A stretch of 63,539 nt of DNA, filler included, from Rhabdomonas costata (GCA_019059605.1; 48 parts of 48 records of this genome joined end to end with filler, not necessarily neighbours in it), one strand, 5' to 3'; positions 19,736 to 25,104 are shown, counted from the whole stretch's first letter. Program-made: numbers and translations. The notes: generated from the sequence alone by a model not told the origin.

Positions 19736-20540
19736 ACGCGAACCCGTGACACCCCCAACTCGCAGAAACTAAAGCAAAGGCAATAACAACTCAGAAGAAC
19801 NNNNNNNNNNNNNNNNNNNNNNNNNNNNNNNNNNNNNNNNNNNNTTAATTAATTAANNNNNNNNNNNNNNNNNNNNNNNNNNNNNNNNNNNNNNNNNNNN
19901 TGTGTGGGGGGGGGGGCAGGCGGGGCGGTGGTGCGGGTCACCCGTGCCCTGCTTGCCGCAGCCGCCCACGGGGAGCCTCCAGAGGAGGTACCCTCTTGGC
20001 ACGTTGATACTTCGCGCACTAATATGCCTCATCGTTGGACGTTTGCTCGGGGACATACCCTTCTTTGCAACGTAGTGCCTGCTGCCCCACACAAATACCT
20101 CTCTCTCATCTCTCTGCATAGCACACCTCATTCTTTCATTCTGTGTCATCAAAAAAAGAACTCCACACAAACTCCATATACACACAGAGAGAGACTTGAG
20201 AAGTTCACAGGGGCTTGCTGGTGACCCGGGGCAGCTGCGTGCAAACAGCAAACACTCTTCCTTTCACCCAGCTTTGCATCAAACACCGGGAGCACGAACC
20301 TCTGTGCCCCATCCAACAATTCAAGTAATGCACGTTCACCCTTTCATCTACTGCGTTTCTGTGTTCCTGCTCTCCTCTCCCACCCGTCTCGCACAGGTAC
20401 TGCAAGCCCCTTCGCAGTCATCGGGTCATTCCCGAGCGGTGGGTTCTCTTCCTTCACCGGCTTTGGGCACGGGGGCTCCTCCTCCTCCGGTCGCCAGCGC
20501 CTCGAGAAGGCCGCACCAGCACAGCACAACTCCCATCCCA

Positions 20541-21120
20541 TCAGACGGCACCTCTCGGGCGGCTCCCAGCAGCCGTTCTGTGGGGGTTCCGGACACCGAG
20601 AGTCGCAAAGGCCCAAACCTAGAGGAAAGCAAAGGGGAAGTGACCTTGCAGTGCACCGATAGGAGAGGAAAGAAAGGAAAAGATTAAGAGTCCCGGCTTG
20701 CATTTCCCAACAACGCGGCAATTGCATCAACATAACAAATACCGTGTTGGCAACTTCTTGGGGTTTCAGGGTGCTCAGCACCTCAGGATCAGAGGCTCGC
20801 TTTGCAACCACGCTGAGGATAATCTCTGAGTCAGTGGCCAGCTCAGGCTGCAGGCGGCCTATCTTCGCCATGGCCAAGCAGCAATTGCTGACCGCTTGTG
20901 CGTCAAAAGAGTCGATCATCTCAACGACACAGCGTAGAAGCTTCCGCAGAGCCTCTCCGCGCCGGGCATCCCCTCCTCGGGAACCTTCCGGAGTCCAAAA
21001 CTTGATCAAGCGATGAAGCGCTGTGGTGACATTAACCTCGTTGGCAAATTTTGGATCCATTCGATCCATAATTAAGTTCACCAGCTCTCCTTGTGTGGAG
21101 GCTCCGACAAGTGCCCACAC
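20541..21120 (-). CDS. Octotricopeptide/RAP-family helical-repeat RNA-binding protein fragment (exon ~21120-20743, intron 20742-20619, exon from 20618)
   Basis: Repeats FDAQAVSNCCLAMAK and LKPQEVANT|VWAFATLG restored by a 124-nt GT-AG intron; also VNVTTALHRL. Confidence 0.8.
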
Positions 21121-23878
21121 AAAACANNNNNNNNNNNNNNNNNNNNNNNNNNNNNNNNNNNNNNNNNNNNTTAATTAATTAANNNNNNNNNNNNNNNNNN
21201 NNNNNNNNNNNNNNNNNNNNNNNNNNGGTTGGTGGTGTGTCTCCTCGCACCAACCGCCGTCGACCACTTCGTCAGCATGGGTCGCAGTGGCCAACCGTCC
21301 GCTGACGCTGCTCTCTACAACGGGCTAGGGGCCACGGGCTGCGCAACTCTTCCTCTCCACCTTTGGATCTCTTTCTGCCTCCCCTTGGATCCCCCTCTTC
21401 TCCCTCGTCACTCTCCCGCAGTGCTTTGGTCTCTTAAGGTCATGCCACCAAGCATCCCAGTGGACTTCGCTGGTCCATTTGTGCCTGGACTTCTTCTGAT
21501 CATTTCCTGGAGCTCACTAGATCTTCCATAGCTGGGGGGGGGGAGTGGCGCCCATTCCCGAATTCTCGGATTGGGAAATACGACGGAAAAAAGCACGACC
21601 TGAGTGCTCTTGGGCCGCTGGGAGAAGGAAGTGGGTCATCAGACAATAAATATTGTAAGTAAGAAATCCCGGAAAATACGGAGGTCTTTCGCACAAAACC
21701 CGATGGACTTGAACGTCTGTTTTGTTCGAGTGGTTCCGGCATAGCTCATGAAACTCGAAAAAAGAACAGGGGGTGGAAAGGAGATGATGGTCGGGCATTG
21801 TGGGCCACGATTTCGAGGGAGTTGGTGTGGTTGTGCAATGGCGGTACCCTTGTCTAGGTCGGTTTCCGAACTTCGGAATTGACCTCTCTGTTGCCGTGGT
21901 CTTGGGATTTGGCATCCCAGATTCCTTCGAATTTTTGCCGTCCAGGTGTTACACACGCCTTGACATTCCCGGTTAGTGGCCTTACGGATTTTAGAGGCAG
22001 GACACGGGGAGTGGTGCGTCGGCTTTTTCGCACACAACAGGACAGAAGTCACCAGAAAACTCGTCAACAGACCTTGGTGGCCTTCGTCGTTTCGGCTCAC
22101 TACTTCGGCTTCCGACTTGTCCTTCGTCATCACGTTCCTCTTTACTTCTGCCGATTTCTCGATTTAGTGATATATGACCAGGGGCGGTGGTTCCAACCTC
22201 CTATCGGAAGCCATAGACATGCGTCCTCGACTTCTCGACTTGGGCTCGGAGTCCTGTTCAGCATCCTAATGGGTCGGGACTTTTACATGGAATAATCTGA
22301 CAGGTCCAATAGATAGAGAGGCACAACTATACAAGGTTGGAAGCTCTCGGTGTTCTCCTCCGTGGAGCCTAGATTGGCATCGGAGGTGTGGTCTAGTGCA
22401 TCCAAGGTTTACTACGACCTCAGCCTCTTTCCTACCAGATCCCCCCCCACAANNNNNNNNNNNNNNNNNNNNNNNNNNNNNNNNNNNNNNNNNNNNTTAA
22501 TTAATTAANNNNNNNNNNNNNNNNNNNNNNNNNNNNNNNNNNNNNNNNNNNNAGCGGGAACGTGACGAAGTACCTGGGGGCTTTTTGTGACGAAGTACTC
22601 TTCGATACATACAATTGTTACCACCAGCAACGGCTACCAGTGATAACCGTTACCCCCCCCCCCAACGTCAAGCGCACCGAAATTAGAGTGACATTTTTCT
22701 CACCTCTTCCCCTTCAAGTTTGTAATGGCAATCTTTGTATCTCCGTCACAGAACACATACTTGCTCCGAGTCCGAGGGAAAAAACTTAGTCGAAAAGGTC
22801 CGTGTTAGCACTTCAGGAGTCGAACACTCAAACACCAAAAAGCTCAAACCCTATGAGGGAGTTCGACGGCGGGCCGGGAATCGTGGGCCGCCGAAGAGGC
22901 GGTGCACCAGGAGTGGCTCCAAACAGGGGTGCCTCCGCAACGTCAGGAGGTGCACGCACCGAAGCACGCGCAGCCACAGGGGCAGCGGCAGGGGCAGCCC
23001 GGGGCGGCTGTGGTGGGAAGGGCGCATGAATGAGACACAAAAGCGGGTAACAAAAGCAACAGGTCTTCCACTGGGAATACCAGTCAGGCACCGAGCACGT
23101 ACATCCATCCATCCAAACCCAGGCGGAATGAAATGGAATGAAAGGCTCGTGGGAAAAACAAAGTGCGGGAGAGGCTAGAAATAAAAACAAGATGAACTCT
23201 CGAGCAATAATTTGAGAAAGCCGGTAACTTTGGGCTGACTTGTGCCGAACCTGCCTTCGGACGACTGACCCAAGACGACATGTTGGTTCGTGTCAAACTC
23301 TCATTTTTAGTTCCACTTCTCGAACGTGGGGAAGTTCCACCTGAACTGTTTGCACAGACGCACAGTCACTTTCCCACCTACATGCCGCCTCGCCTTCCGA
23401 AGCGAGCTGGCTTCGGTGCACCTCCTTCCCAACCATTCCCCTGCTGCACCCGTCCTTCCCGGTTTCGTGCTCGACCCAGCAAGTCGCAGAAGCAGAAGCA
23501 TTGATACCTCCATATCTCATTCGGAAATCCCAAAAGAGGGCTCACTGTGTCGTCCCACGCTTATGCATAGTGTTCGGGACCGCTGCTTGTCTGCTGTGCT
23601 CCTTGTGTACCCATTTTGCACCTGAGCTGGAAATAAGATCTTGGAGCCGTATTCCGTAGTTGCCTTGCCTTTAGTCAAATTCATCCTGCGGTCCGTTTGT
23701 CATAAGACCACTTGTGAGAAGCTGCGGGTGGTTGACACCCTGTGGAAGGGGAATTGATTGCATCGGAGCGGAACCACNNNNNNNNNNNNNNNNNNNNNNN
23801 NNNNNNNNNNNNNNNNNNNNNTTAATTAATTAANNNNNNNNNNNNNNNNNNNNNNNNNNNNNNNNNNNNNNNNNNNNG

Positions 23879-25104
23879 GGTGGTTTGAATATAGGAGATA
23901 TTTATAATGTAATTATGAATGATTTTTATTCGATTTTGTAAATGGGCGATATATGATATTTTTACAAAAACTGATATCGATGATAGTGGTAATATATATC
24001 CGTTACTTATTATATTACATAAATTACTAAATTTAGATAATTGTGTTAATAATATTATGTGGAAAAATTTATCTTTACACGATAAACAATCTTTTTCTAA
24101 CAAATGGAAAAAATTCTTTGATAATATAATATATCATCGTACTATTTATCTTGATGAAATTGAGTTAACATATATTATGGCATTAAAAATTGTATCTTCA
24201 ATGTATACTTTTTTAAGTTATGGTGTAAAAAATACTACAATGCGTTCTAAAGTTATTTTTTTAAGAAAATATAATATGAGAAGATTATACACTTTTTTTC
24301 TTTATTCAATTCAATCTTTAAAAACTACATGGTATGGTCATTATTTATTAGATTTGAACACAAATACTATTCGTTCAAGATTAAATGATCCTATTTTTAA
24401 AAAAATATCTCTTAAATATATTTATAATTTTTCTAAATCATTATGTTATTTACCAAATGATAAAAAAAATATTTTTCCTACAAATTGGTGTTCTATGACT
24501 TTTGAACATAAAAATTTAGTTTTGGAACGTCTTAATAATATTGATAATCAATGGTTTAATATACGTGGTGTGTTAAAAACTATATTTGTTGGTGTTAATT
24601 TACGTATTTTAAACACAAAAATTTACGAGTTGGTACGTTCAGTATTAATACGATTTATTTTTGAGACTCTTATCATTAAAGGAACATTGAGTAAATGTGA
24701 TTTTGGTGTTGACGAGAAAAACTTATTAAAATTACGTACAACAAACAATTTTTATAATAAGTATTCCTATCATTTTTTAAATAATAAACCTTATGAATTA
24801 ATTGAAAATGGTAAATATATTGAACGTTTAATCAATACTAAACAATACAATAATTTTACACTTGATTGGATCACTCAAATTAGTATTTTTCATCATTACA
24901 TAAACAATCGAGTTATCTTTTTAACTGGTGCAACTGGTGTTGGTAAATCAACTCAAATACCTAAATTATTTTTATATGCATTAAAAATGATATCTTATAA
25001 CAATTATGGTAAAATAGTATGTACCCAACCAAGAATTAAACCAATTAAAAATAATGCTACATATGTTGCAAATGATATTGGATTTCCAATACAAAATGAT
25101 AATT
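23879..25104 (+). CDS. Partial giant-virus-like (Mimiviridae/Imitervirales, Mimivirus R366-type) DEAH/RHA helicase; main frame 23919 to contig end
   Basis: About 20% GC by eye, no introns, ~395 open codons; Walker A GATGVGKST (24927-24953), motif Ia CTQPRI (~25020-25037); long N/I/K/Y-rich extension ending DWITQISIFHHYINNRVIFLTG. Confidence 0.8.

Follow-up and report, generated by a model that had tools for sequence, protein, structure and literature searches.

A low-GC contig in a Rhabdomonas costata assembly carries an internal fragment of a helicase gene of probable giant-virus origin

Among the contigs assembled for the euglenid Rhabdomonas costata (GCA_019059605.1), one short piece of very unusual composition raises the question of whose DNA it is, which gene it carries and in what state it was present in the sample. 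The window, that is, the whole stretch of 63,539 nucleotides that was analysed, consists of 48 contigs of about 1226 bp each, joined via N/TTAATTAATTAA spacers, and is not one stretch of a genome. The contig at 23878-25104 (1227 bp) had a guanine plus cytosine (GC) content of 22.2%, against 46.9-60.0% in the remaining 47 contigs, in agreement with the original prediction, made from the sequence of the window, which had picked it out as a GC outlier among contigs of about 50% GC. Taken together, our results make it highly probable that this contig is giant-virus DNA, corresponding to an internal fragment of a long gene (about 1400-1800 residues in its product) encoding a DEAH/RHA-like superfamily 2 helicase of the kind typical of Imitervirales. 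Both ends of the contig fall inside this one gene without any host-like flank, and its sequence is viral in character from 23878 to 25104.

The main open frame of the contig (P0001) was found on the plus strand at 23919-25103, where it comprises 395 codons and continues past the 3' end of the contig. When the contig was shuffled 2000 times, the longest open frame had a mean of 60 codons and a maximum of 151. Because the observed frame far exceeds this maximum, it has been kept by selection, now or until recently. The main frame was colinear with the relatives described below and no intron-like interruption was seen along it, which bears out the earlier description of this contig as intronless.

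A word-indexed search of longer proteins gave 215 relatives of the predicted protein at E<=0.001, the best of which (P0002, 1385 residues) showed 44% identity with 94% coverage of the query. When 1.84 billion representative sequences were searched exhaustively with HMMER, 554 matches were obtained at E<=0.001, 507 of them at E<=1e-10 and 165 at E<=1e-30, and a search for near-identical copies among proteins of near length returned two matches, with 40% and 26% identity. An alignment-based scan of IMG/VR succeeded in recovering 190 relatives in 375 candidate stretches, whereas a scan of viral contigs with the single protein had found none. Eighty of these relatives were kept as loci (L001-L080), to which all the neighbourhood counts given below refer, and in 35 of the 80 the contig name contained GVMAG, the mark of a giant-virus bin from a metagenome. 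ESM Atlas offered low-score leads (best 0.88, and one Nucleocytoviricota cluster at 0.85) that were not used as evidence. Residues 4-395 of the fragment correspond to residues of about 230-640 of relatives with 1400-1800 residues, meaning that the contig holds only about one quarter of the gene, and the query agrees with 59 of the approximately 66 columns within its span that are at least 80% conserved. The fragment adds a new member to a viral helicase family that is large and already known. Since its nearest relatives are only 41-44% identical to it, the source virus appears to be one without a close sampled relative, the best match being the 44% of P0002. The four nearest relatives (P0002-P0005) are short for the family, with 1373-1385 residues, and their motif Ia reads ITVPRIKP, as opposed to CTQPRI in the query and in the family consensus.

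Two parts could be distinguished in the protein fragment, both encoded on the plus strand. Residues 1 to about 283 (23919-24767) form a mostly helical, family-specific N-terminal domain, delimited by means of a structural model and conservation, and residues of about 284-395 (24768-25103) form the start of a DEAH/RHA-type RecA1 domain, recognised by the model and by a profile match. The latter contains motif I (Walker A), GATGVGKST, at residues 337-345 (24927-24953), and motif Ia, TQPRI, at residues 369-373 (25023-25037). Residues G337, G340, G342 and K343 of motif I and P371 and R372 of motif Ia were invariant in 100 aligned sequences, so that both motifs named in the original prediction stand on invariant columns. 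The longer block quoted there, DW.TQI..FHHYIN...TGATG.GKSTQ.PKL.LYALK...GK..CTQPRI, matched the consensus of the family alignment. On the other hand, what had been taken for an extension of about 330 residues rich in N, I, K and Y proved to be the back half of a conserved, confidently folded N-terminal domain of about 600 residues: the approximately 330 residues before motif I aligned residue by residue with the relatives, which have about 230 more residues upstream. The DEAH box (motif II) and the RecA2 domain fall past the 3' end of the contig; in the relatives they appear as [IV]DE[AS]HEH and as a Pfam Helicase_C match.

The comparison with cellular proteins bears directly on the possibility that the contig carries a cellular DEAH helicase gene of an AT-rich contaminant and is not viral at all. 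The ATPase core is indeed akin to that of Prp43, DHX15 and HrpA. A profile built from 20 family members matched 70 sequences of the PDB at E<=0.001, with Prp43 at E 1.6e-59 and with Prp16, DHX15, DHX8 and HrpA also among the matches, but every listed match began from position 593 onward, which is the ATPase core. The cellular DEAH/RHA helicases (Prp43/DHX15, Prp16, Prp22/DHX8, DHX9 and HrpA) share with the viral family this core and the type of motifs I and Ia, together with a DEAH/DESH box in the relatives of the fragment; they lack the viral N-terminal domain of about 600 residues, and the approximately 310 residues that precede the core in the fragment matched the viral family only. In addition, no relatives were found among 600 candidate stretches from prokaryotes represented by one genome per species (185,579 species genomes), and the relatives that do exist adjoin capsid and MutS genes of nucleocytoplasmic large DNA viruses (NCLDV). 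One relative, P0101, located on a 454-kb contig, carries the NCBI name 'MAG: helicase-related protein [Thermoplasmata archaeon]', where MAG stands for metagenome-assembled genome. This unchecked label would favour a cellular source, but it is probably a binning error, that is, a giant-virus contig placed by mistake in an archaeal MAG. A contaminant cellular helicase, which the original prediction had named as the finding that would count against it, is disfavoured by the N-terminal region and is in our judgement very improbable.

The viral assignment was further examined with an AlphaFold model of the fragment, built with 46 sequences, which had a mean predicted local distance difference test score (pLDDT) of 81.6, a predicted template modelling score (pTM) of 0.81 and 157 residues with pLDDT of at least 90. 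Against the structures of viral proteins in BFVD, the model gave five matches at E<=0.001, and all of them were RNA helicases of the Mimiviridae lineage, namely those of Bandra megavirus (A0A2K9V8D2), Homavirus (A0A3G5A576), Moumouvirus Monve (H2EEB2), Megavirus courdo11 (K7Y9C6) and a Megaviridae environmental sample. Their E values were from 9e-12 to 9e-7, their query-normalised template modelling scores 0.50-0.70 and their identities 20-28%, and the best match spanned the whole query. No helicase of Asfarviridae, Marseilleviridae, Phycodnaviridae or Poxviridae was significant in BFVD, where an unrelated protein of African swine fever virus appeared at E 1.2 and the sole protein of Bodo saltans virus (BsV) was likewise unrelated, at E 1.8. 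The fragment and these RNA or HrpA-like helicases of the Mimiviridae lineage share the fold over the full length of the fragment, with the N-terminal domain included, as well as motifs I and Ia, the conserved block that surrounds them and the richness in AT. They differ in the low identity noted above, in the frame break of the fragment and in its Q at a near-invariant W, both of which are described below.

Against the PDB, Foldseek gave no match to the model at E<=0.001, and a wide VIA-align comparison gave none at Z>=5. For residues 1-280, VIA-align returned scattered helical proteins at Z 3-4, which were taken as chance. Residues 283-395 of the model overlaid RecA1 of DHX9, Prp43, DHX8 and DHX36 with Z of 3.7-4.4 and 22-28% identity (4.1-4.4 and 23-24% for DHX9 and Prp43), weak values for a stretch that is short. 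The lack of a PDB match for the modelled N-terminal domain does not establish a new fold; a conserved domain of this kind without a solved structural relative may be seen as a small open question.

The genomic surroundings of the relatives agreed with a giant-virus origin. The GC content of 88 related giant-virus loci (80 with the helicase and 8 with a capsid gene) was 16-39%, with a median of 23%, close to the value of the contig. Matches to the NCLDV capsid family PF04451 were found in three of the four long records searched, with several genes in each. The three records (G002, G003 and G004, of 260-362 kb, which are the records of L009, L019 and L067) had 3-5 capsid-family matches each, some of them inside frames of 1449-2399 residues. 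Of the 28 records with a length of 50 kb or more, 20 contained the MutS_V domain, mostly at 5-10 kb from the helicase. By tblastn, a MutS gene was located upstream of the helicase, no more than 10 kb away and on the other strand, in 37 of the 80 loci. A SNF2/DEAD-type helicase of about 470 residues was immediately upstream in 22 loci, and 34 had a NUDIX gene at a distance of 5-11 kb downstream. In one locus (L018, 2131-21361), Pfam also recognised an eIF2-alpha-like gene, ankyrin repeats and an Rpb7-like gene, and its MutS neighbour had the MutS domains I, II, III and V, a composition that does not establish the subtype MutS7. According to a review of the family, MutS7 is the only protein that is unique to Mimiviridae and found in every sequenced member (PMC6163669).

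The helicase gene of the metagenomic relatives lies near MutS and a SNF2-type helicase, and we take it that in Mimivirus a MutS (L359) and a SNF2 helicase (L364) presumably lie close to R366. The label R366, which the original prediction had attached to this type of helicase, is putative: no statement of a helicase for R366 was found in the literature consulted, and in one preprint 'R366/337' serves as a marker of the viral factory with no mention of a helicase (bioRxiv 10.1101/2024.09.01.610734). The wider claim, that of a helicase of the Mimiviridae/Imitervirales type distinct from cellular Prp2/16/22/43 and from HrpA, held up on the N-terminal homology, the BFVD matches and the capsid and MutS context.

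Phylogenetic trees were calculated in order to place the fragment within the family. FastTree was applied to 295 family members trimmed to the region of the fragment, and IQ-TREE (LG+C20+F+G4, with ultrafast bootstrap and SH-aLRT supports) to 65 rows, comprising the query, its six nearest relatives, 22 of the 28 loci searched for MutS and 36 others taken at random. The 22 loci were those that survived the cut to the region, the removal of duplicates and the exclusion of long branches; five rows were excluded from the IQ-TREE set, four of them with long-branch joins and one a very long row. The query and P0002-P0005 formed a clade with supports of 100/98. Because the cellular helicases span only the last 70 residues, the tree was unrooted, and its nesting is to be read with this in mind: the query group was nested in a clade of 45 rows (91/93) with 10 MutS-linked loci and in one of 56 rows (99/93) with 15 MutS-linked loci, although a root on the query branch would make the fragment sister to these clades and not nested in them. 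The FastTree result agreed with this placement. Profile searches and a phylogeny had been proposed from the outset as the way to check the assignment; the profile matched cellular DEAH helicases over the core only, and the fragment fell in the MutS-linked part of a tree without named references. Assignment to Imitervirales is supported.

Several observations weigh against this interpretation and have to be set beside the evidence in its favour. The rank of Imitervirales draws on MutS synteny, on the names of the BFVD matches and on composition, and the tree contains no named sequence of Mimivirus, Cafeteria roenbergensis virus (CroV) or BsV. No capsid gene was found in one of the four long records and no MutS in 8 of the 28, all of them being fragments. 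P0002-P0005, the nearest relatives, came without retrievable genomic context. A first metagenome scan gave no relatives among 589 stretches, and among the 37 loci of a second one, none exceeded 40% identity across any stretch of substantial length, the sole match of 53% spanning only 80 residues. Pfam, applied to the fragment alone, gave weak P-loop matches. Whereas cellular DEAH/RHA helicases have HA2 and an OB-fold, neither HA2 nor OB_NTP_bind was detected by Pfam at E<=0.01 in any of five full-length relatives (5/5), in which DEAD and Helicase_C were present. At residue 313 of P0001 (24855-24857), the fragment has a Q in place of a W that is shared by 98% of 99 aligned relatives, and together with the frame break this change means that the copy may be decaying. 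Finally, the helicase activity and its substrate are predictions from the amino acid sequence.

If the analogy with DEAH/RHA proteins holds, the full protein would bind single-stranded RNA (or RNA/DNA) across its two RecA domains and would move along it in the 3' to 5' direction by hydrolysis of nucleoside triphosphates, remodelling RNA or RNA-protein complexes. Of this protein, the fragment encodes the back half of the helical N-terminal domain, which is exclusive to this viral family, and the beginning of the ATPase core with motifs I and Ia; the N-terminal domain itself would probably bind a partner or the substrate. Because a SNF2-type helicase, a NUDIX gene and an Rpb7-like gene are conserved neighbours, we consider it rather probable, by analogy, that the protein serves viral transcription or the handling of mRNA, in the viral factory or in the virion, with the N-terminal domain as a docking or regulatory element. 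The contig as such is not expected to give an active enzyme and, judging from its sequence, cannot do so, because motifs II-VI are absent from it and the frame is broken.

The break is located near the 5' end of the contig. The original prediction had described the contig as fully coding. It is coding throughout, but two frames are needed, with a single frame change at 23930-23939. The 41 bases before the main frame are coding and not untranslated, since tblastn showed that 23879-23929 (plus strand) belongs, in another frame, to the preceding part of this helicase gene and encodes the conserved motif IGDIYN..NDFY, which in the closest relatives stands immediately before the region of the main frame. 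This piece matched residues 197-213 of P0002, P0003 and P0005 and residues 198-213 of P0004; it was identical to P0002 at 12 of 15 positions, and the consensus of the family for this motif is DIYNTIxNxLY. The main frame opens at 23919, and that of the upstream motif stops at 23939-23941. Because conserved residues flank both sides and the upstream frame stops there, the shift could be confined to 23930-23939 on the plus strand, a zone with four consecutive T at 23934-23937. The change would be a genuine lesion or else an error of sequencing or assembly. A programmed frameshift at this point was considered and set aside, as the relatives all align in one frame and none is broken there.

The Q at residue 313 lies just before the DW.TQI block, with Y-to-F and F-to-I changes nearby, and these substitutions could be a trait of the lineage or a sign of relaxed constraint. 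With its 395 stop-free codons in DNA of 22% GC, the gene looks recently functional.

As for the rest of the window, Rfam gave no matches anywhere in it, and Pfam no domains in the ten longest open reading frames (ORFs) of the other contigs. In a neighbouring contig, a frame of 260 codons on the minus strand (20347-21126) resembles an exon of a helical-repeat protein over its first 145 residues or so, followed by sequence that is not protein-like; it had no Pfam match.

In which physical state the viral DNA was present can be judged from the contig itself, from the other contigs of the window and from published work on euglenids. It is quite possible, and we tentatively put this account first, that the DNA was free or carried over at low abundance, coming from a virus whose host was another protist in a non-axenic culture, from environmental carry-over or from ingested particles, and having no tie to the host genome. 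This agrees with a contig that is viral throughout and lacks any junction with DNA of 50% GC, and with a gene that is nearly intact, as it would be in a live virus. It also agrees with the other 47 contigs, none of which showed a resemblance to giant-virus loci in a narrow screen against 1826 ORFs, taken from 1.96 Mb of sequence around helicase and capsid genes. The elements published for Euglena gracilis, moreover, belong to Asfuvirales and not to Imitervirales (PMC12455990). Against this account, the broken frame and the replacement of W by Q suit a decaying copy equally, and every contig of the window is about 1.2 kb long, so that the short size of this one is uninformative. A decaying copy would fit an endogenous element in the nuclear genome of the host, either a new insertion derived from Imitervirales or an unrecognised part of the low-GC elements known from Euglena gracilis, which we regard as possible with rather more reserve. 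In that species, elements of 25-37% GC occur in a genome of about 51% GC, one of them (CP87_12, 25.4% GC) is a separate lineage, and curation kept only 8 of 28 candidate regions (PMC12455990); NCLDV core proteins had already been listed in 2017 for an assembly of this species (PMC5294986). The broken frame and the substitution of a near-invariant residue also point in this direction. However, the published elements are Asfuvirales and all the named matches found here are of the Mimiviridae lineage, 395 stop-free codons in DNA of 22% GC speak against long erosion, and the fragment has no introns or transposon pieces. The near-intactness of the gene, along with a best relative at 44%, is what would be expected as well of an under-sampled host's virus, and hence of an Imitervirales virus infecting the sequenced euglenid actively or persistently. 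BsV is a member of Imitervirales that infects Euglenozoa (PMC5871332, PMC8061765) and a study of co-occurrence has connected Mesomimiviridae to Euglenozoa (PMC13396486). Nevertheless, we find infection doubtful: the window holds a single viral contig of 1.2 kb, and an active infection would usually be expected to give deep and long contigs. The small probability that is left falls to other sources, among them the cellular contaminant considered above.

The statement in the original prediction that no giant virus of euglenids had been described is outdated, because Jivaji et al. reported eight giant endogenous viral elements of Asfuvirales, now eroded, in Euglena gracilis (PMC12455990), and Gallot-Lavallée and Blanc (2017) had counted an E. 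gracilis assembly among the datasets with NCLDV core proteins (PMC5294986). According to one source, no euglenid-infecting virus has been isolated (PMC8061765), and the known links between Imitervirales and Euglenozoa consist only of BsV and co-occurrence statistics (PMC13396486). The contig described here resembles the E. gracilis elements (25-37% GC in a genome of about 51% GC) in being a viral sequence of 22% GC among contigs of about 50% GC; it differs from them in that they were assigned to Asfuvirales by trees of PolB, major capsid protein, RNA polymerase and A32 (PMC12455990), whereas the fragment has matches of the Mimiviridae lineage and MutS-linked relatives. With BsV, which has a kinetoplastid host and is the sole giant virus of Euglenozoa known to have been isolated, it shares the richness in AT and the order Imitervirales as supported here (PMC5871332), but no helicase of BsV was among the significant BFVD matches to the fragment.

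The contig shows that viral DNA was in the sample, and this is not the same as infection or integration. With a single fragment of 1.2 kb, the tie between virus and host remains a lead, and the value of such a fragment, coming from a well-populated viral family, lies in drawing attention to the other contigs of the assembly, which could be screened. It is unlikely that the fragment represents an unsampled lineage of Imitervirales (with no protein of more than 44% identity in the collections searched) that infects the euglenid or has recently entered its genome. If this were true, it would be the second order of giant viruses tied to euglenids and the first link between Imitervirales and euglenids obtained from host-derived sequence. 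A nearly intact Imitervirales gene in the assembly of a euglenid could point to a second, perhaps active, virus-host pair and to a target for isolation.

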